Below are positions 3,744 to 54,453 of a stretch of DNA of 64,000 bases, piece after piece (position 1 is the stretch's first letter; every line of letters starts with the position of its first letter). Source of the DNA: Patescibacteria group bacterium (GTDB lineage Bacteria > Patescibacteriota > Minisyncoccia > Minisyncoccales > RBG-13-36-15); NCBI GenBank assembly GCA_022574775.1, contig JACZRI010000003.1:34308-98307 (forward strand). Reading direction: 5' to 3'. The translations under genes and the position numbers were made by a program. Below the pieces are notes generated by a model. It ran no database searches, was not told where the DNA came from, and worked only from the letters and a program-made list of their open reading frames with translations.

Positions 3744-4760
3744 GTGTTTAAGGATAAGGTATACAATAAGAAGATGAAAAAGACGAGTTTGCAAAAGTTA
3801 CTACCAGGTTTAAAGAGAAATGTTTTACTAAAAAACTATACTACTTTTAAAATTGGGGGTGCCGCCCAATTTTTTTTTGTTGCGAAAAATAAAAAAGATG
3901 TAATGAAAGCAGTCCAAACGTCCAAAAAATTAAAGCTTCCATTTTTTATTCTAGGAGAGGGAAGTAATTTGTTGATATCTGATAGGGGATTTAAAGGGTT
4001 AGTTGTCAAAATACGAAATACGAAATACGAGATACCCCGCACCAGAACAAGTTCGGTGCGGGGCAGGCAAAACATTCTGGTTTATGCAGAAGCTGGGGTT
4101 TCTTTCCCTGTTTTGGTTAAGGCAACGACTGAATTGGGATTGTCTGGATTAGAGTGGGCAGGTGGATTGCCAGGTACTCTAGGTGGAGCAATAAGGGGTA
4201 ATGCAGGAGCATTTAGAGGAGAAATAAAAGATGTTATTTTGGAAGTTGAAGCTTTGGATGAAAAAGGTAATTTAAAAACATTATCTCGAAAGCAATGTAA
4301 TTTTTCTTATCGATCCTCTATTTTTAAAAAAAATAACTGGATTGTTTTATCAACTGCGCTAAAACTGGGAAAAGGAAATAAAAAATTGATTCAGTCGATT
4401 GCAAAAAGTCATATAAGATATCGAGAAGAAAAACATCCACTTGAATATCCTAATGCCGGCAGTATTTTTAAAAACTGTGACCTCAAAAAAATTCCAAAAA
4501 GACTAAGAGCCAGTTTTAATAAAGTTGTAAAGACAGATCCATTTCCATTAATACCTTCGGCCCACCTTATTTCAGAAGCTGGATTGAAAGGATTAAGAGT
4601 TGGCCAGGCAGAAGTTTCAACCAAGCACCCAAATTATATTGTTAATCTGGGTAATACTACAGCAAAAGATGTAATAAAATTAATAAATTTAGTAAAGAAA
4701 GAAGTAAAAGATAAATTTGGAATAGTATTAGAAGAGGAAATAAAACTTGTAGGGTTTTAA
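3744..4760 (+). CDS. murB: UDP-N-acetylenolpyruvoylglucosamine reductase MurB (alternative start at 3774); carries a 36 nt in-frame palindromic insertion at 4036-4071
   Basis: NYTTFKIGG and GEGSNLLISD FAD-binding motifs plus a MurB C-terminal domain. The PRTRTSSVRGRQ segment has no counterpart in reference MurB alignments. Confidence 0.8.
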   Translation: MFKDKVYNKKMKKTSLQKLLPGLKRNVLLKNYTTFKIGGAAQFFFVAKNKKDVMKAVQTSKKLKLPFFILGEGSNLLISDRGFKGLVVKIRNTKYEIPRTRTSSVRGRQNILVYAEAGVSFPVLVKATTELGLSGLEWAGGLPGTLGGAIRGNAGAFRGEIKDVILEVEALDEKGNLKTLSRKQCNFSYRSSIFKKNNWIVLSTALKLGKGNKKLIQSIAKSHIRYREEKHPLEYPNAGSIFKNCDLKKIPKRLRASFNKVVKTDPFPLIPSAHLISEAGLKGLRVGQAEVSTKHPNYIVNLGNTTAKDVIKLINLVKKEVKDKFGIVLEEEIKLVGF

Positions 4761-5081: not shown

Positions 5082-5114
5082 CCCCGTACCAGTTGGCGCG
5101 GGGTTTTTTTATTT
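5082..5114 (+). terminator. Rho-independent terminator
   Basis: CCCCGtaccagttggcgCGGGG hairpin followed by T9. Confidence 0.55.
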
Positions 5115-5171: not shown

Positions 5172-5606
5172 ATGAAAATTATTATTAAAACGAAAAATAT
5201 CAAATTAACAAAAAATTCACAAAAATATATTAATGACAAAATAAATTCTTTGGAAAAGTTTTCCAGAATTTTCCAACAAAACCAAAAATATTTTTTCAAA
5301 AAAACAGGAATAGTAATCCGGATAGAGATTGGAAAAGAAACCCTGCATCATAAAAAAGGAAATATTTTTTTCGTAAAATGCCAAATGAAACTTCTTGATA
5401 AAATCTTGCGAGCAGAAGTTGTTTCAAAAAATTTGCGGGAGGCAGTAAATGAAGTCAAAAATATTTTACAAAAAGAATTAAAGCAGTCTAAAGAAAAATT
5501 AACTTCCAAAAATTTAAGAAAAGCAAGAATTTTAAAAAAATCTTTCCACCTTTCTTCTCAAGCTCGCTTTTGGAGAAAAGGTAGAATAAGAGAAGAAGGA
5601 ATATGA
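5172..5606 (+). CDS. hpf: Ribosome hibernation promoting factor / RaiA family protein
   Basis: The size, beta-alpha-beta-beta-beta-alpha pattern, and the (I/V)xIxxG...TLH motif are typical of HPF/YfiA. Confidence 0.55.
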   Translation: MKIIIKTKNIKLTKNSQKYINDKINSLEKFSRIFQQNQKYFFKKTGIVIRIEIGKETLHHKKGNIFFVKCQMKLLDKILRAEVVSKNLREAVNEVKNILQKELKQSKEKLTSKNLRKARILKKSFHLSSQARFWRKGRIREEGI

Positions 5607-6145
5607 TTCCATCAAAATTTTTCTTTACCAAAGGAGTTGGGATAGCGAAAGAAAAACTGAGTTCTTTTGAGTTAGCTTTAAGAGACGCTGATATTGAGCA
5701 GTATAATTTAGTTTCTGTTTCCAGCATTTTACCACCCGGCTGTAAAAAAATTTCAAGAGACAAGGGAATATCTATGTTAAAACCAGGCGAGATTGTGTTT
5801 TGTATTATGGCTAGAAATGAAACGAATGAACCCAATAGATTGTTAGGAGCTGCAGTTGGTTTTGCGCTACCTACTGGAGATAAAAATTATGGTTATCTTT
5901 CTGAACATCATTCTTTTGGCGAGACAGAGGGGAAAGCAGGAGATTATGCCGAAGACTTAGCAGCTTCTATGTTAGCTTCTACTCTTGGAATTAAATTTAA
6001 TCCTGATGATGCCTGGGATACTAGAAAGCAAGCCTTTCGGTTAGGCGGAAAGATAGTCTATACTTCTAATGTTACCCAAACTGCCAAAGCTAACAAAAAT
6101 GGCCTGTGGACTTCAGTCTTAGCGGCAGTCATTTTTATTCCCTAA
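5603..6145 (+). CDS. pdaD: Pyruvoyl-dependent arginine decarboxylase
   Basis: MIPSKFFFTKGVG..FELALRDA..SVSSILPPGC closely matches the PdaD N-terminus, including the serinolysis site. Confidence 0.8.
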   Translation: MIPSKFFFTKGVGIAKEKLSSFELALRDADIEQYNLVSVSSILPPGCKKISRDKGISMLKPGEIVFCIMARNETNEPNRLLGAAVGFALPTGDKNYGYLSEHHSFGETEGKAGDYAEDLAASMLASTLGIKFNPDDAWDTRKQAFRLGGKIVYTSNVTQTAKANKNGLWTSVLAAVIFIP

Positions 6146-6168
6146 GGCATTTGGACCATTTTTTTGCA

Positions 6169-7317
6169 ATGAACAATAAACTTTCAAAAAAAGAAAAACA
6201 TCTTGCCAAACTTGTTTCTGAATACGCAAAACTGAACCTAAAAGAGTATAAAAAAGTAAGGAATATTACTCAAAAATACAAGACAAAAAAAGTTGAGACC
6301 ATTGATGTTAATTCCAAAAGTGTTTCTGAACTTTTATCTGCGATGGCAAAAACAGGTTTTCAGGGCAGGAAGCTTGGTGAAGTAGTTGATGTTTGGGAAG
6401 AGATGATTAAGGACAAGAATATAACTATCATAATGGGGTATACGGGTTCTTTAAGCACAACAGGTCAGTGGAAGATAATAAATTGGCTGATAGAAAATAG
6501 ATATATAGATGTTTTGGTTTCGACAGGAGCCAACATCTCTGAAGAGATTGTAGAGGGTATGGGGTATCATTACTGGCAAGGAAGCCAGAATGCTGATGAT
6601 GCTAAGTTATTAGATAGCGATATTAACAGGTATTATGATATTTTTGGGGACGATGTAGAGTATCTGGACATGATAAACTTGATAGCTAAATTTATCATGA
6701 CCTGTAAAGAAGGCTATAATTATTCTACAATGGAATTCCTGCGCGACTTTGGCCTGTGGTTGAATAAGAGAAAAGTAGACAGTATTGTAGGGGTTGCTGC
6801 CAAAGCCAAAGTTCCTGTTTTCAGTCCTGCTTTGGTAGATTCAGCGTATGGAGATGCTGTATTGATAGCAAAGAGTAAGAACTTCGATTTAATACTTGAT
6901 CAGGCAAAAGATTATGTAGAATTCATGGGTCTGGCAAGAAAGGTAAAGGATATCGGAGTAATTTACATAGGCGGTGGCGTACCAAAAGACTTCATTCAAC
7001 TTTTAGCGGTATCTGCGCCTCTTGAATATTATGATAAAAAAATACCTGACAGATCTGGAGGCGTTTTTCGTCCTGCAACCAACGAATGGTTTTATCCTCA
7101 CAAGTATGCTATACAAATAACTACTGACAGTCCGCAATGGGGAGGCCTTTCGGGATGCACTTTCGAAGAAGCGAGCAGCTGGGGCAAAGAAGAACCAGGT
7201 GGCAAGAATGTAACGTGCTACTGCGATGCCACCATAGCCTTGCCGATTGTCACACATGCTTTGGCAGAAAGAATCAAAACAAAAAGAAAAGGTACTGATT
7301 TTTCCGACCTTTTTTAA
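6169..7317 (+). CDS. Deoxyhypusine synthase-like protein (DHS family)
   Basis: The GSLSTTG...LVSTGANISEE Rossmann-like DHS signature is present, and the gene sits between pdaD and speB. Confidence 0.65.
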   Translation: MNNKLSKKEKHLAKLVSEYAKLNLKEYKKVRNITQKYKTKKVETIDVNSKSVSELLSAMAKTGFQGRKLGEVVDVWEEMIKDKNITIIMGYTGSLSTTGQWKIINWLIENRYIDVLVSTGANISEEIVEGMGYHYWQGSQNADDAKLLDSDINRYYDIFGDDVEYLDMINLIAKFIMTCKEGYNYSTMEFLRDFGLWLNKRKVDSIVGVAAKAKVPVFSPALVDSAYGDAVLIAKSKNFDLILDQAKDYVEFMGLARKVKDIGVIYIGGGVPKDFIQLLAVSAPLEYYDKKIPDRSGGVFRPATNEWFYPHKYAIQITTDSPQWGGLSGCTFEEASSWGKEEPGGKNVTCYCDATIALPIVTHALAERIKTKRKGTDFSDLF

Positions 7318-7326
7318 AGAATAAAA

Positions 7327-8190
7327 ATGAAGAAACCTTCTTATCCAACTTTGGAGCCTTTCAATTTTCTTGGCCTAGAAAAGCAAGATTATGAAAAAGC
7401 AAAAGTAATAATTTTCCCAGTTCCTTATAGCTCAACCACGTATTGGAAATCAGAAACAAAAGATGGGCCAAGAGCAATCATTGAGGCTTCCAGGCACTTG
7501 GAGCTTTACGATTTAGAGCTAAAAAAAGATCCCTCCAGAATAGGGATTTTTACGTTGGAGCAATTAGAACCATCAAAAGATTCTCCTAAAGCGACCATAG
7601 CCAGAATAAAAAAAATAATAAAAGATCTGTTAAAAGATGGGAAATTCCCCCTGATGATAGGGGGGGAACATTCAATTACTAACGGAGCTATTCAAGCTTT
7701 CAAAGAAAAATTTTTAAACTTTTCTGTTTTGCACATTGATGCCCATACAGATTCGAGAGATGAATTTGAAGGAACAAAATGGCATCATGCTTGTGTAATG
7801 AGAAGGGCAAGGGATTTTAAGATTCCAGTAACGCAAGTTGGAATTCGAAGTATTTCAGAAGAAGAAGCAGAATATTTTAAAAAGAAAAAGATTAAGAGTA
7901 TTTTTTATTCCCCAAATCTTCCGCTTAATAAAATCATTGCCACTTTGAAAAAAAATGTATATATAACCTTTGATTTAGACGTTTTTGATCCTTCTATTAT
8001 GCCCTCTGTGGGAACCCCAGAGCCTGGAGGTCTTGGCTGGTATGAAACCTTAGATCTTATTAGAGCAATTGCGAAAAAAAGAAAAATAATCGGAGCAGAC
8101 GTAGTAGAACTTTGCCCAATTCCAGGAATTTCTGCCCCTGATTTTTTAGCAGCAAAACTGGTGTATAAAATCATAAGCTATATAGCGTAA
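7327..8190 (+). CDS. speB: Agmatinase (arginase/ureohydrolase family)
   Basis: GGEHSIT, DAHTDSRD and DLDVFDPS..PGG manganese-binding motifs. Confidence 0.8.
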   Translation: MKKPSYPTLEPFNFLGLEKQDYEKAKVIIFPVPYSSTTYWKSETKDGPRAIIEASRHLELYDLELKKDPSRIGIFTLEQLEPSKDSPKATIARIKKIIKDLLKDGKFPLMIGGEHSITNGAIQAFKEKFLNFSVLHIDAHTDSRDEFEGTKWHHACVMRRARDFKIPVTQVGIRSISEEEAEYFKKKKIKSIFYSPNLPLNKIIATLKKNVYITFDLDVFDPSIMPSVGTPEPGGLGWYETLDLIRAIAKKRKIIGADVVELCPIPGISAPDFLAAKLVYKIISYIA

Positions 8191-17616: not shown

Positions 17617-19227
17617 ATGAATAAAGAAATAACACTTTTTGCAGAAACTACTTTCAGGAATTTGAGAAAGAAGTTTGGAATTAAGCTTGATGATAGAAGG
17701 AGACATGTTTATATCATAGGAAAAACCGGGATGGGAAAAACCGTGTTGCTTGAAAATATGATAATTCAAGATATTCAGCAGGGCAAAGGAGTAGGTTTTG
17801 TTGATCCTCATGGGGAGGCTGCGGAAGGATTGCTTGATTTCATTCCCTCCAACAGGATTAATGATGTAATTTATTTTAACCCTGCTGATCTGGAACATCC
17901 CATCGCTTTTAATATTATGGAGAAAGTGGATGTTGAGCATCGTCATTTGGTCGCAGGAGGATTAATGGGAGTTTTTAAAAAAATCTGGCCAGACGTCTGG
18001 TCAGCAAGAATGGAATACATTTTGAATAATTGTATTTTGGCTCTTTTGGAATACCCGGACTCAACCTTACTCGGAGTAAACCGGATGTTGGCCGATCCTG
18101 ATTATCGAAAAAAAGTCGTGGAAAAAGTTACAGATCCTATGGTAAAATCATTCTGGCTTCAAGAGTTTGCTAGGTATACTCAACGCTACGAGGTGGAGGC
18201 AACAGCTGCTATCCAGAATAAAGTCGGACAATTCATTTCAGCTCCTTTAATCAGAAATATTATTGGCCAGGTCAAGTCCACACTTGATATGAGGGATATT
18301 ATGGATAAAGGCAAAATTTTAATTTTGAATTTATCCAAAGGAAGAATAGGAGAAGATAATTCTCGGTTATTGGGGGCTCTTTTAATAACTAAATTGCAGT
18401 TAGCTGCTATGTCCCGCGTAGATGTACCAGAGGATGAGCGAAGAGATTTTTTTCTTTATGTTGATGAATTTCAGAATTACGCAACAGAGTCTTTCGTTAA
18501 TATTTTATCTGAAGCAAGGAAATATAGATTGTCCTTGATTTTGGCTCATCAGTACATTACCCAGATGGAGGAAACAGTAAGAGACGCAGTATTTGGAAAC
18601 GTGGGAACTATTATCGCTTTTCGGGTGGGAGCAGAAGATGCAGAATTTTTAGAAAAAGAATTTGTTCCTGAATTTACTGCCCAGGATCTAGTTAATTTAG
18701 CCAAATATAATATTTATTTAAAGCTGATGATTGATGGAATAGCAGGCTCTCCATTTTCTGCAGGGACTTTTCCTCCTTTTCCAAAGCTAGAGCATTCAAA
18801 TAGAGAGAAAATTATCAAGGCATCTAGGGAGAGATATGGGACGAAAAAAGAATTGGTAGAAGAGAAAATTATCAGATGGACAGGTATTGTAAACTCACTT
18901 CCACCCACTTCCGCCCAGACTGTTCTTTACGATGCAAAATGCTCACAATGCGGGAAACAGACAAAGGTTGTTTTTCCTCCAGATGGAGTGAGGCCTACTT
19001 ATTGTAAATCCTGCCGGAATAAAATGAAAAAAAGTGAGGCGCAAAGAGAGAGTGGAGAAGCTTCTATTTCTTTTAAGGAAGCCTTGAAAAAAGAACCAAC
19101 CTCTTTTTCTCCCAGAAAATTAAACAGAGAACCTTTTAAGAAAAGAAAAAACGTTAATGTAGAGGAATTAAAGAAAACATTAGATGAAATCTTAGAAAAA
19201 AGAGAAAATAAAGATTCCCAACAATGA
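17617..19227 (+). CDS. FtsK-HerA superfamily ATPase, TraD/VirD4 (type IV coupling protein)-like, with a C-terminal Cys4 zinc ribbon
   Basis: Walker A YIIGKTGMGKT within H-x-YIIG...VDPHGE context, Walker B FFLYVDEFQNY, and CSQCG...CKSCRNK. Confidence 0.55.
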   Translation: MNKEITLFAETTFRNLRKKFGIKLDDRRRHVYIIGKTGMGKTVLLENMIIQDIQQGKGVGFVDPHGEAAEGLLDFIPSNRINDVIYFNPADLEHPIAFNIMEKVDVEHRHLVAGGLMGVFKKIWPDVWSARMEYILNNCILALLEYPDSTLLGVNRMLADPDYRKKVVEKVTDPMVKSFWLQEFARYTQRYEVEATAAIQNKVGQFISAPLIRNIIGQVKSTLDMRDIMDKGKILILNLSKGRIGEDNSRLLGALLITKLQLAAMSRVDVPEDERRDFFLYVDEFQNYATESFVNILSEARKYRLSLILAHQYITQMEETVRDAVFGNVGTIIAFRVGAEDAEFLEKEFVPEFTAQDLVNLAKYNIYLKLMIDGIAGSPFSAGTFPPFPKLEHSNREKIIKASRERYGTKKELVEEKIIRWTGIVNSLPPTSAQTVLYDAKCSQCGKQTKVVFPPDGVRPTYCKSCRNKMKKSEAQRESGEASISFKEALKKEPTSFSPRKLNREPFKKRKNVNVEELKKTLDEILEKRENKDSQQ

Positions 19228-20297
19228 AGGTACTTTCAGATTTTGGTTTTGAAAATAAAAAAGTTTTGATGAGATGTGATTTTGATGTTCCCCTCGATGA
19301 AAAGGGGAATATTTTAGATGACTTTAGAATTGAACGGTCAATTCCCACAATTGTATATTTAACGAAAAAGAATGCAAAACTTATTTTAATGTGCCATCTG
19401 AAAGGATTTGGCGACGAGATAGTGAGCGTAGCTCCAATCCAGAAGAGATTAGCGGAATACCTGGATTGCCCGGTAATAAAAGCTAAAAATTGTGTTGGCA
19501 AGGAAATTGAAGACTGGATTTCGAAAATGTCTCCAGGAGATATTTTGCTCTTGGAAAATTTAAGATTTTATGCAGGCGAGAAAGAAAACGATCAGGAATT
19601 TGCCAGGAATTTGGCAAAATTAGGAGATATTTATATTAATGATGCTTTTGCTACTTGCCACAGAAAGCATGCTTCAATTGTTGGAGTGCCAAAATATCTA
19701 CCATCGGCAGCAGGGTTGGTTTTAATGGAAGAGATAAGGATATTGTCTAAGATCAGGAAAAATCCAGTAAGACCCTTAATAGCAATAATGGGGGGTACCG
19801 TTCAGGAAAAAAAAGGATTAATGTTCGTGGAAAAGATGTCACAAATCGCAGATTTTGTTTTAGTCGGCGGCCTAATTAAAAAATCAATTGAAAAAGAGAA
19901 ATTTTCTTTTACCAGTCCTCAGAAAATTATCCTTCCAGTAAAAGAAGCTATGTCTGACTTTGATTTAGGGCCAGAAACCTTGAAAATTTTTAAAGAAAAA
20001 ATTTCTCAGGCAAAAACTATCTTTTGGTCGGGACCTGTGGGGAAGATTGAAGAAGAAAGATTTTCGAAAGGAACTATGGAAATTGCCCAGGCAATTATCA
20101 GCGCTTCGGCTTTCAAAGTAGCAGGAGGGGGAGCAACAATTGATTTTCTAAGAGACCATAATTTAGCTTCCAAATTTAATCATCTTTCCACGGGAGGGGG
20201 ATCTGCATTGGCTTTTTTAGCAGGGGAGAAATTGCCAGGTATTGCCGCCCTCGAAGAGGGCGAGCCTCGCTCAGTGAAACTGAGCGGGAAGCCTTAA
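19224..20297 (+). CDS. pgk: Phosphoglycerate kinase with an atypical C-terminal extension (EEGEPRSVKLSGKP) built from two GC-rich hairpins
   Basis: RCDFDVPLDE N-terminus, GGGA..DFL, and a ...GGGSALAFLAGEKLPGIAAL C-terminus. Confidence 0.9.
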   Translation: MKVLSDFGFENKKVLMRCDFDVPLDEKGNILDDFRIERSIPTIVYLTKKNAKLILMCHLKGFGDEIVSVAPIQKRLAEYLDCPVIKAKNCVGKEIEDWISKMSPGDILLLENLRFYAGEKENDQEFARNLAKLGDIYINDAFATCHRKHASIVGVPKYLPSAAGLVLMEEIRILSKIRKNPVRPLIAIMGGTVQEKKGLMFVEKMSQIADFVLVGGLIKKSIEKEKFSFTSPQKIILPVKEAMSDFDLGPETLKIFKEKISQAKTIFWSGPVGKIEEERFSKGTMEIAQAIISASAFKVAGGGATIDFLRDHNLASKFNHLSTGGGSALAFLAGEKLPGIAALEEGEPRSVKLSGKP

Positions 20298-21598: not shown

Positions 21599-21742
21599 TA
21601 TTAGCCCCAGAACCAATCCTCACTTCGTTCGAATGGTACGGGGCAAGCATTAATTATGGTTTAACTTGTTTGGAGTTTCCTATGCCCGCCCCGTATTTCC
21701 CGACTTGTCGGGATAGTACCGGGGTATATTAGTGTCGCGTTT

Positions 21743-23690: not shown

Positions 23691-24131
23691 ATGAAAAAAA
23701 TTCTCATTTATACTGACGGCGGCTCCAGAAGCAATCCTGGACCGGCAGCCATTGGAATTGTTTTTTGTAATGAAAAAGGCCAAAAGATTAAAGAATTTTC
23801 AGAATATCTGGGAGAAGCGACAAACAACGAAGCTGAATATCAAGCTGCTATTTTTGCTTTAAAAAAATTCAAAGCTCTTTTTTCAAAAAAATTAGCCAGT
23901 CGTGCAGAAATTGAATTAAAATCAGATTCAGAGCTTTTGGTGAATCAACTATTAGGAAAATATAAAATTGTGGATCCAAAAATTCAACCTCTTTTTTTAC
24001 AACTTTGGAATTTAACGCTTGATTTTAAAAAAGTCAAATTCAAATTTATTCCTAGAGAAAAAAACAAAGAGGCAGACCGTTTGGTCAACGAAGCCCTTGA
24101 TGGGGCATCCAAGACCCAAAAACTTCTCTAA
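23691..24131 (+). CDS. rnhA: Ribonuclease H (RNase HI-like)
   Basis: IYTDGGSRSNPGPAAIG..NNEAEYQA catalytic DEDD signature. Confidence 0.75.
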   Translation: MKKILIYTDGGSRSNPGPAAIGIVFCNEKGQKIKEFSEYLGEATNNEAEYQAAIFALKKFKALFSKKLASRAEIELKSDSELLVNQLLGKYKIVDPKIQPLFLQLWNLTLDFKKVKFKFIPREKNKEADRLVNEALDGASKTQKLL

Positions 24132-25477: not shown

Positions 25478-25853
25478 GATTTTTAATGTCCTAGCAAGTC
25501 TATAAGCCGAATTCTGTATTTGTGTGATCATTTGTCTGGGCCCCGATTTACATCTGAGCTCAAGCGAACTACTCTTTCACAAAAATTCTAGATAAACCCA
25601 GAATTTCTGATTTGTTCTTGCACCCAATAAGGATTTAGCCGTTTCACTCCTACATTGCTGCAGGACTACTCCGACAATAGTCGGAGTGCTCAACCTTTCG
25701 GTTTCGCGCGTCTCTGTTCGCACCTCTAGTCTTACGACCGACGGCCGTTAACCGCTATATTTTTTGACCCCGATATCTATTCGGAGAAATGGTGTTCGGA
25801 CTTTCCTCCCCCTGTCATTGCTGGCAAGGAGTAATCACCCAACTTACTAGGAC
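25478..25853 (-). ncRNA. rnpB: RNase P RNA, bacterial type A
   Basis: The minus strand reads GGGGGAGGAAAGUCCGAACACC (P4 5' strand), GGAGUGAAACGGCU and ACAGAAUUCGGCUUAUAG (P4 3' strand). P1 pairs UCCUAGUAAGU with ACUUGCUAGGA, and the region is GC-enriched. Confidence 0.8.
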
Positions 25854-27768: not shown

Positions 27769-29607
27769 ATGGAAGAACGAAAGAACATAATAAATTTCTG
27801 TATTATTAGCCATATAGATCATGGAAAGTCAACTTTATCTGATCGTTTCTTGGAGCTTACAGGCACTGTTTCAAAAAAGAAAATGCGGCCCCAGTATTTG
27901 GATTTAATGGATCTGGAAAGAGAGAAAGGGATTACCATCAAAATGCAGCCAGTAAGGATGTCCTATACCTTAAACGCCAAACCCTATATTCTAAACCTTA
28001 TTGACACGCCGGGTCATGTTGATTTCTCGTATGAAGTTTCAAGATCCTTGGCTGCAGTTGAGGGCGCAATATTATTGGTTGATGCGACAAAGGGAATTCA
28101 GGCGCAGACTATACACAATTTAGAATTGGCGAAAAAACCCCGATACTATTCATCTTCTGCGGAGTTACGGGGCAGGCAAAATTTCGTAATCATTCCAGTT
28201 GTTAATAAGATTGATTCGTTGTATGCGCGAGTTGAAGAAGTAAAGGCGGAAATTTCCCAGGTTTTAAATGTTGAGGAACGGGAAATTTTATCTATTTCAG
28301 CGAAAAACGGCACCAATGTAGAAGAACTTCTCAAAGTTGTGATAGAAAAAATTCCAAAGCATACTGGCAGCGAGGATGCTCCTTTCAAAGCGCTCATTTT
28401 CGACTCTAAATATGATTCCTTCAAAGGAATAATCGCCTACATAAGAATTTTTGAAGGGAAGATTAAAACAGGAGAGCAGATTTATTTAATAGGAGGGAAG
28501 TCAAAGTCTATTGTGAAAGAGGTAGGGTATTTTAAGCCGGGTTTAACCCCGGCTTTAGAGCTTAAAGCCGGGGAGATCGGGTATTTGGCTACTGGCATTA
28601 AGGAGCCTGGAAGGGTAAGAGTGGGAGACACCATTACGAAATTAAATACTGCTGAAATTAAACCATTGCCGGGCTATAAGGAGCCGAAGCCTGTGGTTTT
28701 TGCCAGTTTATATCCTGAAAGCCCAGAGGATTTTGACCTTCTCAAAGAAAGTTTAAACAAATTAGAACTGTCCGACCCTTCTTTTACGTTTGAGCAAGAA
28801 GCAAAAGAGATGCTGGGAAGAGGGTATCTCTGTGGATTTTTAGGTTCGTTGCATGCTGAAATTGTGATTGAGAGGCTTCAAAGAGAATTTGGACTGCATT
28901 TGATAATTTCTCATCCTTCGGTGGTATATAAAATTATTGATAAAAAAGGAAAGGAAGTTTTAGTTTTTTCTCCTATTGATTGGCCCGATGTATCTTCAAT
29001 CCAAAATACTGAGGAACTCTGGGTGAAGTTAGAAATTATTGTTCCCAAAAAATATTTCGGCAAAATCTTCAAGGTTTTAGAAACAACTAAAGGAAAGCAT
29101 ATTGAGAACAAGTTTTTTGGGAAGGAGCAAGTCTTGTTGATTTATGAGGTTCCTTTGCGAGAAATAATAAAAGACTTTTACGACAAACTAAAAGGAGCTA
29201 CAGAGGGCTTTGCCTCAATGAATTATGAAATTTTAGGTTTTCGAAAGGCAGATTTGGTGAAGTTGGATATTTTGATTGCCGGCAAGAAGGAGAAGGCATT
29301 TTCTAAAATTATCCCCAAAGAAAATACTTTTTTGGAAGGCAGAAAGATTGTAAGCAAATTAAAAGAAGTCTTGCCTCCTCAACAATTTGCTTTACCATTG
29401 CAGGCTGTTATCTCCGGGAAAATTATTGCAAGAGAAACACTTTCTGCGAGAAGAAAGGATGTTCTGGCATCTATCTACGGCGGAGATTATACGCGAAAAA
29501 AGAAACTGTTGCAAAGACAAAAAAAAGGCAAGAAGAAACTAAAAGGGAGATCCTTGCCAATTAAGATCCCCCCCAAAGTGTTCTTAGAAATTTTCAAAAG
29601 CTCTTAG
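27769..29607 (+). CDS. lepA: Elongation factor 4 (LepA); carries a 42 nt in-frame palindromic insertion at 28139-28180
   Basis: G-domain motifs HIDHGKST, DTPGH and NKID plus the LepA C-terminal domain. The PRYYSSSAELRGRQ segment is absent from reference LepA between QT..N and NKID. Confidence 0.9.
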   Translation: MEERKNIINFCIISHIDHGKSTLSDRFLELTGTVSKKKMRPQYLDLMDLEREKGITIKMQPVRMSYTLNAKPYILNLIDTPGHVDFSYEVSRSLAAVEGAILLVDATKGIQAQTIHNLELAKKPRYYSSSAELRGRQNFVIIPVVNKIDSLYARVEEVKAEISQVLNVEEREILSISAKNGTNVEELLKVVIEKIPKHTGSEDAPFKALIFDSKYDSFKGIIAYIRIFEGKIKTGEQIYLIGGKSKSIVKEVGYFKPGLTPALELKAGEIGYLATGIKEPGRVRVGDTITKLNTAEIKPLPGYKEPKPVVFASLYPESPEDFDLLKESLNKLELSDPSFTFEQEAKEMLGRGYLCGFLGSLHAEIVIERLQREFGLHLIISHPSVVYKIIDKKGKEVLVFSPIDWPDVSSIQNTEELWVKLEIIVPKKYFGKIFKVLETTKGKHIENKFFGKEQVLLIYEVPLREIIKDFYDKLKGATEGFASMNYEILGFRKADLVKLDILIAGKKEKAFSKIIPKENTFLEGRKIVSKLKEVLPPQQFALPLQAVISGKIIARETLSARRKDVLASIYGGDYTRKKKLLQRQKKGKKKLKGRSLPIKIPPKVFLEIFKSS

Positions 29608-48976: not shown

Positions 48977-49056
48977 ACGAATATATTTTAAAATTTTTAT
49001 TCAACGACATAATGTTGCCATGGCGATATTATGTCGTTGAATACTCACACTTTTTC

Positions 49057-49656
49057 TTATTCAACTCTTCTTATATACTCGTGTGTCTCCGTGTTTATTT
49101 CGATGATATCTTCCTCTTTTATAAAGAGGGGAACATTTATTTTAGCTCCGGTTTCCAGGGTCACTTGTTTTTTTCCGGGCTGCGATCTCCCGCCTTTAAT
49201 ACCTGGCGGGGATTCTATGACCTTCAATTGGACTTTAACGGGCAGCGCGATATTGATCACCTTTTCTTTAAAAATTATTTGCTTAATGATTTGATTCGGC
49301 TTTAGAAAGCTGGTTTGTTCTCCAATTTGCTCCGATGTTAAATCAAATCTTTTACTTGGATCATCTTTTTTTGAAAAAAAATAGCGATGGCGGCTTGTCC
49401 CATCGGAGATTGAAGATTTTCTATCGAGGTGGGAGTATAGAAATTTTGCTTCAATTTTCGAAATATCCGCTTCGTGGAAAGTTTCTCCCTGGTGGAAATT
49501 TTTAGAAAAAACATTGCCGTTAATAAGATTCTTAATCTTGGTTTGAATAATAACCCTTCTTTGAGCCATTTTCAAAGGACGAGCCTCCAATATCTCGTAA
49601 GGTTCTTCGTCAAGAATAATTTTTACTCCTTTTTTTAAATTAGTATGAGTGAGCAC
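49057..49656 (-). CDS. efp: Elongation factor P; carries a 39 nt in-frame GC hairpin insertion (RKSSISDGTSRHR) at 49384-49422
   Basis: The KPGKG-equivalent N-terminal domain, a KOW-like fold, and OB domains II and III (PPGIKGG). The product is about 13 aa longer than typical EF-P between the FLYS and SEQIGE landmarks. Confidence 0.8.
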   Translation of the reverse strand: MLTHTNLKKGVKIILDEEPYEILEARPLKMAQRRVIIQTKIKNLINGNVFSKNFHQGETFHEADISKIEAKFLYSHLDRKSSISDGTSRHRYFFSKKDDPSKRFDLTSEQIGEQTSFLKPNQIIKQIIFKEKVINIALPVKVQLKVIESPPGIKGGRSQPGKKQVTLETGAKINVPLFIKEEDIIEINTETHEYIRRVE

Positions 49657-49657
49657 A

Positions 49658-50680
49658 TTACTTTAAAATAGTTCCTATAAAATCCGTGCGGCCTCTTAGA
49701 AAATCTTCAGAGGTTGTTGATTTTTTTCCTTCCAATTGCAATTCAGTGATTATAAGAAAATCTTTTCCTGTTTGAACTGCGATTTTGCTATCTGGGGCTA
49801 AAAAAGTTTTTCCAGGGCTCCCAAATGGTCCTTTGCTTGTCTGTTTTAAAACATTTACCTTCAAGATTTTTAATCTTAAGCATTTTTTTTCTTCACAATA
49901 AAGACAAAAACTTTCCGGCCATCCTTCAAAAGCCCTAACCTGTCTTTCAATTCCTATTGCTGGCATTTTCCAATCAATCTTCCCGTCTTCCCTTTTTAAA
50001 ATTTTTGAAAAAGTAACTTTTGAATTGTCTTGTGGAACTGGTTTTATATCGCCATTTATCCATTTCGGGATTGTTTCAACTAATAATTTTGCCCCCAAAT
50101 TCGCTAATTTATTTTCTAATTCTCTATAAGGAACCTTCAGGCTTTCTGCTTCATACTTCGTACTTGCAATTATTGGTCCGTGATCAATTTTTTCATCCAT
50201 TAAGATTATGGTTACTCCGGCTTCTTTGTCTCCAGCTAAAATTGTGTGTTGAACAGGCGATGGCCCCCGCCATCGAGGAAGTAAAGAGGGATGCAAATTT
50301 AAAGAGCCATATTTTGGAATTTCTAAGATTTCTTTGGGTAAAATTTCATTGTAGGCAGCAACAACTATTAAGTCTGGTTCATAGCCTTCAATTGTAAATT
50401 TATAATTCTTAATTTTTTCTGGTTGCAAAACAGGAATATTATATTTTTCCGCTAAAATTTTTACTGGTGGGGGAGTAAGAATTTTTTTTCTTCCTGCCGG
50501 TTTATCAGGGGCAGTGATAACGAAAACCGGTTGGAAAGGTCCATGCAAGGAGAGAGAAAAAGAGGACACATATGGAGAGAGAACAAAAGAAGGGATATAC
50601 TCAATAAGCTTTTTTAGGATAGTTGCTCCAAATTCCGGCGTTCCCAGAAAGATAATTTTTAGATTTGTTTTGTTTTTCAT
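49658..50680 (-). CDS. fmt: Methionyl-tRNA formyltransferase, with a CT-rich low-complexity insertion near the N-terminus
   Basis: IIFLGTPEFG, the SLLPRWRGPSP formyltransferase motif, and a C-terminal domain. Confidence 0.8.
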   Translation of the reverse strand: MKNKTNLKIIFLGTPEFGATILKKLIEYIPSFVLSPYVSSFSLSLHGPFQPVFVITAPDKPAGRKKILTPPPVKILAEKYNIPVLQPEKIKNYKFTIEGYEPDLIVVAAYNEILPKEILEIPKYGSLNLHPSLLPRWRGPSPVQHTILAGDKEAGVTIILMDEKIDHGPIIASTKYEAESLKVPYRELENKLANLGAKLLVETIPKWINGDIKPVPQDNSKVTFSKILKREDGKIDWKMPAIGIERQVRAFEGWPESFCLYCEEKKCLRLKILKVNVLKQTSKGPFGSPGKTFLAPDSKIAVQTGKDFLIITELQLEGKKSTTSEDFLRGRTDFIGTILK

Positions 50681-52274: not shown

Positions 52275-52877
52275 ATGAAAATGAGAACAAAACACAGAAT
52301 CTTTATTGCTATTAATTTCCTTCCAGAAATAAAAAAGGAGTTCCTTTTTTATCAGAAGAAATGGGAAGATTTACCGGTTCGATGGACGAAAAAAGATAAT
52401 TTACACTTAACTTTGGTTTTTATCGGCTCTGTGGAGGATGAAGGTTTACTAAAAATCCTTGAAACTGCAAGGGAAGTAGCGAAAAATTCCCAACCTTTTT
52501 CAATACATTTTCAAAGAATTCTTCTTGGTCCGCCTGACAGAACTCCTCGAATGTTTTGGGTAGAAGGGGAAAAGAATCAAGATTTGAGTGTCTTAAAAAA
52601 TAATTTAGAAAAAGAATTGTCAGAGTTAAAATTAAGACGAGAGCTTCGAGAATTCAAAGTCCATATTACCATAGGAAGAATTAAAATATTAGAATGGCGC
52701 CAGCTTCAAAAGAAACCAAGAATTGAAGAAAAAATCTCCTTAACGGTATCGGTAAATTCTATTGAAGTTATGGAGAGTAAATTAAAACCAACTGGGCCGG
52801 ACTATTTTGTTTTAGAGTCAATCAAGCTTGGACCCCTTTCTTTTTCAAAAAAGAAAGGTGATCCCCCGGTACTATAA
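52275..52877 (+). CDS. thpR: RNA 2',3'-cyclic phosphodiesterase (ThpR/LigT, 2H family)
   Basis: Two H-x-T/S-x motifs (HLTLVF and HITIGR). Confidence 0.65.
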   Translation: MKMRTKHRIFIAINFLPEIKKEFLFYQKKWEDLPVRWTKKDNLHLTLVFIGSVEDEGLLKILETAREVAKNSQPFSIHFQRILLGPPDRTPRMFWVEGEKNQDLSVLKNNLEKELSELKLRRELREFKVHITIGRIKILEWRQLQKKPRIEEKISLTVSVNSIEVMESKLKPTGPDYFVLESIKLGPLSFSKKKGDPPVL

Positions 52878-53091
52878 ATCCTTTCGGATTTGAGTACGGG
52901 GCTAGAATACGAAATACATACGTTATTTTACAAGATGCTCGCCCCGTACCATGCGAACGCAGTGAGAATTGGTACTGGGGCAACCTCCAAAGAAAAAATA
53001 TAATGTTATCGCTCGCTCGGCGCCGGTAAGCCGTAGCTCGCGATATTTGTTCGAGACCTTTTTAAAAAAAGGTTCTCGAGCTCTCAAAATT

Positions 53092-54453
53092 ATGAAAAAG
53101 GTTCATTTCATTGGCATTGGAGGAATTGGGGTTTCTGCATTGGCCAGATTTTATTTGAAAAATGGGTGGGAAGTTTCAGGTTCTGATTTGGAAAGTTCAG
53201 AAACCATAACGGCGCTGGAAAAATTAGGAGTTAAAATTTTTGTCGGCAAACATAAAGTTAAAAACTTGAATCCTCAAGCTGATTTGGTTATTTACAGCCC
53301 AGCCATTAAATCGGACAATCCAGAGTTGCTGAAAGCTAAAAGCTATCCTTCGGCAAGCTCAGGATCCCGAGCAGCGTCGAGGGGTAAGTTGGAAGCTATC
53401 TCTTATCCTCAAGCTTTAGGCCAATTAACAAAGAAATATTTTACCATTGCTGTCTCTGGGACGCACGGAAAAAGCACAACCGTAGCCATGATTAGCCTGA
53501 TTTTAATAAAAGCAGGACTTGACCCAACTGTAATTTTAGGAACAAAACTTAAGGAATTCGGCAACAGCAATTTTCGAATGGGCAGCAAACTGCCAACTAC
53601 TAAATATAAACTGCCTTTTCTGGTGATTGAGGCTGATGAATGGGGAGCATCTTTTTTGTATTTTTGGCCAAAGATTATTGTTTTGACCAACATTGAGAAA
53701 GAACACCTCGATTATTATAAAAACTTAAACCATATTTTGAAAACTTATAAAAAATATATTTCCCATTTGCCAAAAACCGGCGTTTTGATAGCAAATAGAG
53801 ATGACCAAAATATAAAAAAAATTATAAGAAAAGAAAAAACGTCATTTTATTCTCTAAGCGATACGGAAGCAAAGAAATTAAAAAATATTTTGGAAGTTCC
53901 GGGAGTTCACAATATTTCTAATGCTCAAAGCGCCTTGACAACTGCCAGAGTTCTAAAAATCCCAGATAGGATCTCTTTTAAAGCTCTTTCAGAATATAAA
54001 GGAGCCTGGCGACGGTTTGAGATTTTTACTAAATATCTAGCAGCTCGGCCCTATACCTTAATTTCAGATTATGCTCATCATCCAACAGAGATAAAAGCTA
54101 CCCTTCAAGCCGCCAGAGAAAAATTTAAGGGAAGAAAAATATGGGCTGTTTTCCAGCCCCATCAATATCAAAGAACATATTATTTTTTTAAAGATTTCGT
54201 TAGAGCTTTTGATTTGGCAGACGAAATTATCTTAACTGAAATTTATCAGGTTACAGGAAGAGAGGAAAGAAAAATTTTAAGAAAAGTCAGCGCTAGAAAA
54301 TTAGCAGTAGATATTAGAAAAAGAAGGAAAAAAGTCCACTTTGTTAAAGATTTTGAGAAAATCCCAAAATTTATTAAAACAAGAGTCAAAGGAAAAGATG
54401 TTGTTTTAGTAATGGGAGCAGGAGACATTTATAAGATAATCGACTTTTTATAA
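53092..54453 (+). CDS. murC: UDP-N-acetylmuramate--L-alanine ligase MurC; carries an in-frame GC palindromic insertion at about 53343-53384 (SASSGSRAASRGK)
   Basis: IHFIGIGGIGVSALA, GTHGKSTT, and the Mur ligase middle and C-terminal domains. The track ORF extends upstream to 52969, but the likely start is MKKVHFIG. Confidence 0.8.
   Translation: MKKVHFIGIGGIGVSALARFYLKNGWEVSGSDLESSETITALEKLGVKIFVGKHKVKNLNPQADLVIYSPAIKSDNPELLKAKSYPSASSGSRAASRGKLEAISYPQALGQLTKKYFTIAVSGTHGKSTTVAMISLILIKAGLDPTVILGTKLKEFGNSNFRMGSKLPTTKYKLPFLVIEADEWGASFLYFWPKIIVLTNIEKEHLDYYKNLNHILKTYKKYISHLPKTGVLIANRDDQNIKKIIRKEKTSFYSLSDTEAKKLKNILEVPGVHNISNAQSALTTARVLKIPDRISFKALSEYKGAWRRFEIFTKYLAARPYTLISDYAHHPTEIKATLQAAREKFKGRKIWAVFQPHQYQRTYYFFKDFVRAFDLADEIILTEIYQVTGREERKILRKVSARKLAVDIRKRRKKVHFVKDFEKIPKFIKTRVKGKDVVLVMGAGDIYKIIDFL

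Follow-up and report, generated by a model that had tools for sequence, protein, structure and literature searches.

Why the gene for a conserved translation factor should carry an extra GC-rich segment, and whether the hairpin that its DNA can form has anything to do with its presence, is the question raised by efp, which encodes elongation factor P (EF-P), in a 64,000-nt stretch of a Patescibacteria group bacterium genome (contig JACZRI010000003.1, positions 34,308 to 98,307; hereafter the window). We report that efp has a real, old and patchily distributed 12-codon insertion, located in a disordered surface turn of the protein, and that the inserted DNA is a palindrome, which is maintained at the nucleotide level in most carriers and has decayed in the window genome. 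Moreover, the window has three further in-frame GC-rich hairpin inserts, in the conserved housekeeping genes murB, lepA and murC, each absent from close orthologs, which is in keeping with the first-pass annotation of this DNA, made by a model from the sequence alone. We consider the odds slightly in favour of these four inserts and a number of intergenic hairpins belonging to one family of short palindromic elements able to sit in coding loops.

The window is AT-rich (~36% GC), its EF-P is 100% identical to an NCBI protein from "Patescibacteria group bacterium" with relatives that include Candidatus Nealsonbacteria, and the gene order fmt-efp-PIG-L is kept in relatives (for coordinates see Table 1). 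The window protein was aligned with 120 homologs and with EF-P from E. coli and T. thermophilus, and the alignment gives an insert of exactly 12 residues flanked by FLYSH and R(H/D)RYFF, with a GC content of 53% compared to 37% for the gene. An extra EF-P segment of 13 residues (RKSSISDGTSRHR, 49384-49422) had been proposed in the first-pass annotation; the segment is real and that interval overlaps it, but the interval takes in the native RHR codons and omits the first two codons of the insert, and the 13th extra residue relative to E. coli EF-P, which all these relatives have, is located further downstream. In an AlphaFold2 model (32-sequence alignment, mean pLDDT 84.5, where pLDDT is the predicted local distance difference test score) the insert is in the loop connecting strands 65-77 and 90-96, which is the tip of a beta-hairpin inside domain II, and not between domains I and II, a location that the first-pass annotation had named for checking. 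The model predicts the loop to be disordered (pLDDT <50 at residues 84-87), and the expectation that an in-frame GC-rich insert encodes a Ser/Arg/Gly-rich loop was borne out. A Pfam scan matched PF08207 (the KOW-like N-terminal domain; 6.2e-13) and PF09285 (the C-terminal OB domain; 6.3e-21), and PF01132 (the central OB domain II) was absent from the matches although AlphaFold2 still predicts the strands of domain II. In precomputed lists PF01132 is rare for homologs with an insert at the turn and common in 187-aa forms, and the insert probably breaks the match to the hidden Markov model. Like canonical EF-P (1ueb/4v6a, 3a5z, 6enj) the window protein is a three-domain factor, while the domain II turn of canonical EF-P has no residues corresponding to the insert; none of the nine solved EF-P sequences that were matched has residues there, and the two best alignments show a gap exactly at this position.

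Among the 120 closest EF-Ps (59-87% identity) 32 carry an insert of at least 6 residues at the turn, and the insert is accordingly not recent in this genome; 26-29 of these are of the PDRKSSTSNGAS type. All carriers belong to one 50%-identity cluster, the representative of which is insert-free, and in a poorly resolved neighbour-joining tree, for which the insert was left out, carriers are intermingled with non-carriers. Specifically, relative L104 (76% identical, with syntenic fmt-efp-PIG-L) lacks the insert and has CAC CGA GAC CGC TAT at the turn, and in fmt and PIG-L it is as near to the window as the carriers L102, L106 and L107. The loop is tolerated by EF-P and, since close relatives are without it, is probably not essential. 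A scan of genome contigs revealed no efp of insert-bearing (PDRKS-type) length. Other relatives have different inserts at the same turn: the efp genes of L111 (1001-1708) and L112 (1001-1651) have tandem 48-nt (16-residue) duplications of strand plus turn, FLFSKEERKQGSxKDR, which result in EF-Ps of 216-235 aa, and P0366, an EF-P representative from a distant lineage (43% identity), has an unrelated and independent insert, PARNASRSEAGG (P...GG). The domain II turn of EF-P is an insertion hot spot.

A palindrome in the orthologous efp inserts

The efp DNA was retrieved for 16 relatives, and 13 orthologous inserts were used for pairing tests. Their consensus, CAC CCC GAT AGG AAG TCT TCG ACT TCC AAC GGG GCA AGT CGC, has an outer stem, CCCCG/CGGGG, and an inner stem, GGAAGTC-TTC-GACTTCC, and the resulting palindrome, CCCCGATAGGAAGTC-TTC-GACTTCCAACGGGGCAAG, differs from the hairpin described in the first-pass annotation, CGATGG-gacaagccg-CCATCG. 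The palindrome pairs in 91% of the cells compared to 24-60% when the 3' partner columns were slid, both partners have changed in four of its pairs, and one of 500 shuffles attained the covariation score. The compensatory changes alter the protein: GGAAGCC/GGCTTCC in L109 replaces Ser by Pro together with Thr by Ala, and AAG/ACT to AAA/ATT in several lineages replaces Thr by Ile; a further compensation, CTCC/GGAG, is present in L110. L031 retains the outer ends together with an unrelated inner stem, a GC stem of 9 bp (fold -38 kcal/mol), i.e., the hairpin is kept and the peptide is not.

The third codon positions give additional information. Identity at these positions is 0.69 in the insert compared to 0.52 in the rest of the gene, which exceeds all 175 other 12-codon windows, while amino-acid identity is 0.69 in the insert and 0.70 elsewhere, and the GC content at third positions is 0.52 vs 0.31. 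This conservation beyond amino-acid identity therefore indicates a nucleotide-level constraint, or a more recent common origin, beyond selection on the protein. In the window and its closest relative, L105, the palindrome has decayed, and the window copy is Watson-Crick at 6 of the 12 ancestral pairs. An Rfam scan of the window returned nothing at or near the efp insert; only RNase P RNA (bacterial class A, 25487-25850, minus strand, 125 bits) and three tRNAs were above the gathering thresholds.

The 6-bp hairpin of the first-pass annotation is present in the window, where it spans the 3' third of the insert and native codons (Table 1), but it is private to this genome and unconserved: across the 13 orthologous inserts 51% of the cells pair, which is no better than shuffles, and the hairpin arose in the window lineage through AAC to GAT. 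The 79-nt context folds at -9.7 kcal/mol (z = -0.42 vs shuffles), and the window has 278 perfect hairpins with a stem of at least 6 bp, 29 of which are GC-rich. With neither conservation nor a significant fold it was rejected as a functional unit, and it is a private by-product and not the relevant hairpin. A search for repeat copies of CGATGG...CCATCG had also been proposed. The only other site in the window, 50258..50275, encodes the RWRGPS stretch of Fmt; it is not an insert, it is located outside the length difference among fmt orthologs, and we rejected it as a repeat copy.

Hairpin inserts in other genes and between genes

The inserts in efp, murB, lepA and murC are all multiples of 3 nt and without stop codons (Table 1). 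The murB insert (3' side GGTGCGGGG-CAGG; fold -24.8 kcal/mol) is present in about 11-18 of 120 MurB homologs and its distribution is patchy, since an 84%-identical homolog is without it and a 64%-identical one has PRTRTSSVRGK. Among homologs the ends of the murB inserts, P...RG[RK], are conserved and the middles vary, and in the ortholog from L114 the insert reads CCCCGTACC...GGTGCGAGGCAGG. The lepA insert, the DNA ends of which are CCCCGATAC...GTTACGGGG-CAGG, is missing from 119 of 120 LepA homologs, including those that are 73-75% identical, and in LepA of L113 (63% identity) the same junction, AAA|CAA, is occupied by a homologous insert of greater length. For lepA and murB alike, the closest homologs lack the insert while more distant ones have it, as homologous DNA and with the codon junction unchanged. 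The murC insert, the 84-nt context of which folds at -29.1 kcal/mol, is lacking in the murC ortholog of L102 and is a probable, diverged member of the palindrome family.

Table 1. Position of efp, its insert and the other hairpin-forming elements in the window
Feature	Position	Strand	Description
efp (EF-P)	49057..49656	minus	199 aa; open reading frame (ORF) list, Pfam EFP_N + Elong-fact-P_C; host gene of the insert
efp 12-codon in-frame insert (36 nt)	49393..49428	minus	residues 77-88, LDRKSSISDGTS; covariance model places the element at 49394-49429
Hairpin CGATGG-9 nt-CCATCG (first-pass annotation)	49385..49405	not assigned	spans 3' third of the insert and native RHR codons
murB insert PRTRTSSVRGR	4035-4067	plus	in murB 3744..4760; CCCCGCACC-11 nt-GGTGCGGGGCAGG, 9-bp stem
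lepA insert PRYYSSSAELRGR	28138-28176	plus	in lepA 27769..29607; CCCCGATAC...GTTACGGGGCAGG
murC insert PSASSGSRAASRG	53347-53385	plus	hairpin ending ...CGAGGGGTAAG
Intergenic copy	21605..21647	plus	CCCCAGAACCA...TGGTACGGGGCAAG; covariance-model match
Intergenic copy upstream of murC	52942..52984	plus	CCCCGTACCA...TGGTACTGGGGCAAC
Intergenic hairpin beside the 52942..52984 copy	52864-52901	not assigned	
Intergenic copy	5082..5103	plus	CCCCGTACC-AGTT-GGCGCGGGG, then T run; terminator-like

A covariance model was built from the 13 efp inserts only and run unfiltered on both strands of the window (128 kb). The efp insert of the window itself scored 48 bits (E 2e-9), and the best non-self matches were the inserts of lepA (E 0.012) and murB (E 0.83) and the intergenic hairpin at 21605-21647 (E 1.1), while in related loci the model matched the L031 variant, on which it had not been trained (E 0.0012), and an intergenic CCCCAGTAGGAAAGT-AAA-CTTCCTACGGGGTAAA (E 0.08); these E-values are borderline and only roughly calibrated. 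The kinship at the DNA level between the efp insert and those in murB, lepA and murC, as proposed in the first-pass annotation, is thus supported, with lepA and murB among the top matches and with CCCCG(A)TA and ACGGGGCARG as shared ends. Specifically, CCCCGATA is common to the efp consensus and lepA, ACGGGGCARG is found in the efp consensus as well as in lepA, murB and intergenic copies, and the same ends are read in two frames, as PR...RG(R/K) in murB, lepA and murC and, one base out of register, as PD...NGAS in efp. In the window CGGGGCARG occurs 6 times (0.27 expected), CCCCG-N12-42-CGGGG 6 times (0.21 expected), and CCCCGTACC with at most one mismatch 11 times (2.75 expected).

In the insert-free efp genes of L048, L049 and L050 the turn H-RGR-Y is encoded by CAC CGG GGC AGG TAT; this matches exactly the CGGGGCAGG motif of the 3' end of the element and stands in contrast to the AT-rich codons otherwise used in these genomes. 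A reading as a "footprint" of the insert was set aside as coincidence or unexplained, because in-frame deletion of the insert cannot yield this sequence. Upstream of murC three consecutive GC-rich hairpins (52864-53050) fill the spacer before the likely true start of the gene (ATG 53092), and the ORF of 494 aa called from 52969 probably has its start placed too far upstream. A reading of the intergenic copies near murC as terminators is unsupported, as the scan finds no T tail.

Not all unusual segments are of this kind. The 19-residue insert in fmt, IPSFVLSPYVSSFSLSLHG (50516-50614, minus strand), is absent from four fmt orthologs and is of another type: CT-rich (39% GC) and without a hairpin, it was rejected as a family member. 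Comparison of secA with its ortholog in L114 revealed no GC-hairpin insert. Within lepA, positions 28534-28573 have an 11-bp palindrome plus direct repeat, AAGCCGGG-TTTAA-CCCCGGCTT-TAGAGCTT-AAAGCCGGGG; this sequence is coding (KPGLTPALELKAGE) and the length is the same as in E. coli LepA, i.e., it is a coding palindrome without insertion.

Origin of the inserts

The reading that we favour is that the ancestral efp element was a GC-rich DNA palindrome, 5'-CCCCGATAGGAAGTC-TTC-GACTTCCAACGGGG-CAAG-3', and one copy of a loosely defined family of 33-48 nt palindromes in an AT-rich Patescibacteria group, whose members would be bounded by the ends CCCCG(x)TA...TA(x)CGGGG, with CARG after them. Copies of this family would sit between genes and, in some cases, in frame in surface turns of conserved proteins such as those encoded by murB, lepA and murC. 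The efp copy entered long ago, is now found in about a quarter of the closest EF-Ps, and is read as a disordered Ser/Arg/Gly-rich loop, which EF-P tolerates, while in the window lineage the palindrome has decayed and left the loop, with the 6-bp hairpin as a private by-product. A common origin of the efp insert with the other inserts, and mobility of the family, are suggested by the shared ends and the patchy distribution. Candidate means of spread would be a trans-acting single-strand transposase, of the kind that serves repetitive extragenic palindromic (REP) sequences (REP-associated tyrosine transposase, RAYT) or IS200, or recombination after DNA uptake. That non-sister lineages have inserts at the same site could be due to a preference for the site, to spread by recombination once DNA has been taken up, or to repeated loss. 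More tentatively, it is possible that these are self-propagating coding palindromes of 33-48 nt which repeatedly insert in, or recombine into, the same beta-turns in EF-P, LepA, MurB and MurC, all essential, with a structure that is actively maintained, and that they remodel surface loops including the uL1/tRNA face of EF-P domain II.

With respect to known repeats, Rickettsia palindromic elements (RPEs) are inserted in frame in unrelated housekeeping genes, translated and compatible with the fold of the protein, and they are patchy among orthologs and also intergenic (PMC10969869). The window inserts behave likewise, being in frame in unrelated housekeeping genes, patchy among orthologs and also found between genes. 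Unlike RPEs, however, which are ~100-150 bp long with a recognisable family consensus and confined to Rickettsia, the window elements are 33-48 nt (three to four times shorter), share only 5-10-nt ends and a variable stem, and reside in a Patescibacteria host; length, consensus and host all differ, and in the lack of any sequence relationship they are RPE-like in behaviour and not members of the RPEs. REP sequences are extragenic by definition and present in hundreds of copies alongside a RAYT gene. The window elements appear to resemble REPs and bacterial interspersed mosaic elements (BIMEs), which are mobilised by RAYT, i.e. Y1 HUH, transposases, in being imperfect GC-rich palindromes of ~20-40 nt in dispersed copies with a conserved asymmetric tetranucleotide beside the stem (here CARG), but the efp, murB, lepA and murC copies are coding and not extragenic, there are ~7-11 copies per 64 kb, and no RAYT gene was seen among the window ORFs scanned. 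Similarly, SPRITE terminator-like repeats and transposable elements of the miniature inverted-repeat type (MITEs) share with the window elements the form of short hairpin repeats at gene ends, one of which (5082-5103) has a T run like an intrinsic terminator. The window elements have terminal inverted repeats (CCCCG/CGGGG), which may correspond to those of MITEs; in contrast, most window copies are without a T tail, target-site duplications are not evident, and the elements are far shorter than typical MITEs. By analogy, the family would be functionally comparable to RPEs and structurally nearer to REP-type hairpins. Literature searches on in-frame palindromic inserts in the Candidate Phyla Radiation (CPR)/Patescibacteria returned nothing relevant.

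Several points weigh against a mobile palindrome family. In addition to the borderline E-values, the link between its members rests on short shared ends (5-10 nt) and hairpin shape, and an nhmmer search with the efp insert profile, over the window and ~575 kb of related loci, returned no further copy. The genome has a general excess of GC-rich hairpins and at least one CCCCG...CGGGG hairpin (5082-5103) is an ordinary terminator, so some of the resemblance could be convergent. No transposase or RAYT gene is present among the ORFs scanned in the 64 kb, and no target-site duplication is evident at the lepA (AAA|CAAAAT), murB (ATA|CAAAAC) or efp (CAC|CGC) junctions. Moreover, the single-gene tree that shows the patchiness is poorly resolved, the insert peptide is conserved as much as the remaining protein, which leaves room for protein-level selection, and the mismatches in the palindrome give no pointer to a folded sense RNA. 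A lineage-wide ancestral sequence without repeat relatives had been named in the first-pass annotation as the outcome that would speak against its reading; the insert is indeed old and widespread, yet it is patchy and has weak, structurally similar relatives.

The conservation of the peptide is what would be expected if the insert were a lineage-specific functional loop, with 12 residues fixed for EF-P function on the Patescibacteria ribosome through, e.g., uL1 or P-site tRNA elbow contacts and the palindrome incidental. In support of this, PDRKSSTSNGAS is conserved across EF-Ps of 59-87% identity, in amino-acid identity the insert is on a par with the remaining protein, and EF-P binds uL1 and the tRNA D-loop through domain II (PMC11514478). 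We nevertheless regard this explanation as unlikely: the compensatory changes save base pairs at a cost in amino acids, the synonymous sites of the insert are the most conserved in the gene, L031 keeps the hairpin and not the peptide, relatives equally near to the window are without the loop, the loop is predicted to be disordered, and the same DNA ends are found in unrelated proteins in another reading frame. That the conserved feature is instead an mRNA hairpin in efp, acting as a translational pause, stability or processing site, would agree with the covariation and the conservation of synonymous sites, and with the stable fold in some orthologs (to -38 kcal/mol in L031). Its loss in the window and L105, its absence from close relatives, the lack of any Rfam family match and the similar hairpins in unrelated genes and between genes make this very unlikely, and so do the wobble pairs: comparison of G-U with A-C counts gave no sense-RNA signature (G-T 13, A-C 11), and since the two are equally frequent a folded sense RNA is not singled out, while a DNA-level palindrome fits.

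Alternatively, the inserts might have arisen by local mutation without mobility, through replicative template switching at a quasi-palindrome or hairpin, where ongoing "correction" of the arms would mimic compensation and the resemblance among inserts would reflect a shared GC-clamp bias. Coding palindromes without length change exist (lepA 28534-28573), L031 and L113 show replacement or expansion of inner stems in situ, the EF-P turn has more than once acquired unrelated inserts, and neither a transposase nor a target duplication was seen in the window. On the other hand, the 8-10-nt ends (CCCCGATA, ACGGGGCARG) are common to unrelated genes and to intergenic copies in other genomes, and homologous inserts at the same junction in non-sister lineages would need repeated identical outcomes, and we judge local mutation to be an improbable source of the inserts. 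Neisseria and Haemophilus have DNA uptake sequences, and by analogy CCCCGTA/TACGGGG might be a signal favoured by the uptake machinery of these competent bacteria, with inverted-pair alleles spreading by transformation and recombination. The motif is over-represented, mostly as inverted pairs, the patchy homologous inserts at the same site are what recombinational spread predicts, and a related locus has a DprA-like gene; yet the sites are sparse (about 11 in 64 kb), conservation is limited to the ends, and the idea is built on the analogy with those two genera, which makes it the least probable of the explanations considered here.

If the palindrome-family reading is true, the loops of core proteins of translation and the cell wall are shaped, in the ultra-small and reduced CPR genomes, by palindromic DNA of a selfish or semi-selfish kind. 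To our knowledge such palindrome-driven protein evolution has so far been documented mainly in Rickettsia. The family would explain many sporadic Ser/Arg/Gly-rich insertions in conserved Patescibacteria proteins and would warn those who annotate genomes or model structures that loops of this kind originate at the DNA level. Should the elements in addition be self-propagating, they would be smaller than any protein-coding mobile repeat known and the first case of such behaviour outside Rickettsia. The amino-acid-changing compensation in a coding palindrome provides a clean natural case that separates nucleotide-level from protein-level constraint.

Other features of the window and its homologs

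Among the LepA homologs P0121-P0240 sporadic short insertions were noted at no fewer than 8, i.e. at least 8, loops, and many of these are Ser/Arg/Gly-rich, e.g. TSLNERRASRGGP, AALRGVAFDDRK and FTPYRAEGSGAG; these genomes seem generally prone to insertions in loops. The 3' end of pgk (20231-20295) has two GC-rich hairpins, GCCCTC-GAA-GAGGGC and CGCTCAGT-GAA-ACTGAGCG, within its last codons, and this segment may be a C-terminal extension that hairpin DNA gave rise to. The genes for a TrwB/TraG-like type IV coupling protein (17617-19227) and for an RNase H / RVT_3-like protein (23691-24131) are also present, and one or the other could be part of a mobile region.

With respect to EF-P itself, the lysine at the tip of the domain I loop occupies the position of the modified lysine in E. 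coli EF-P. Three neighbouring genes at 5603-8190 encode a pyruvoyl-dependent arginine decarboxylase (5603-6145), a homolog of deoxyhypusine synthase (6106-7317) and a member of the arginase family that may be an agmatinase (7327-8190); as a set they resemble a pathway of the polyamine and hypusine type and may have a bearing on the modification of the lysine-tipped EF-P. Finally, just 3' of the efp stop codon (49001-49042) there is a 16-bp AT-rich perfect inverted repeat, TTCAACGACATAATGT...ACATTATGTCGTTGAA, which may be a terminator or a protein-binding site.

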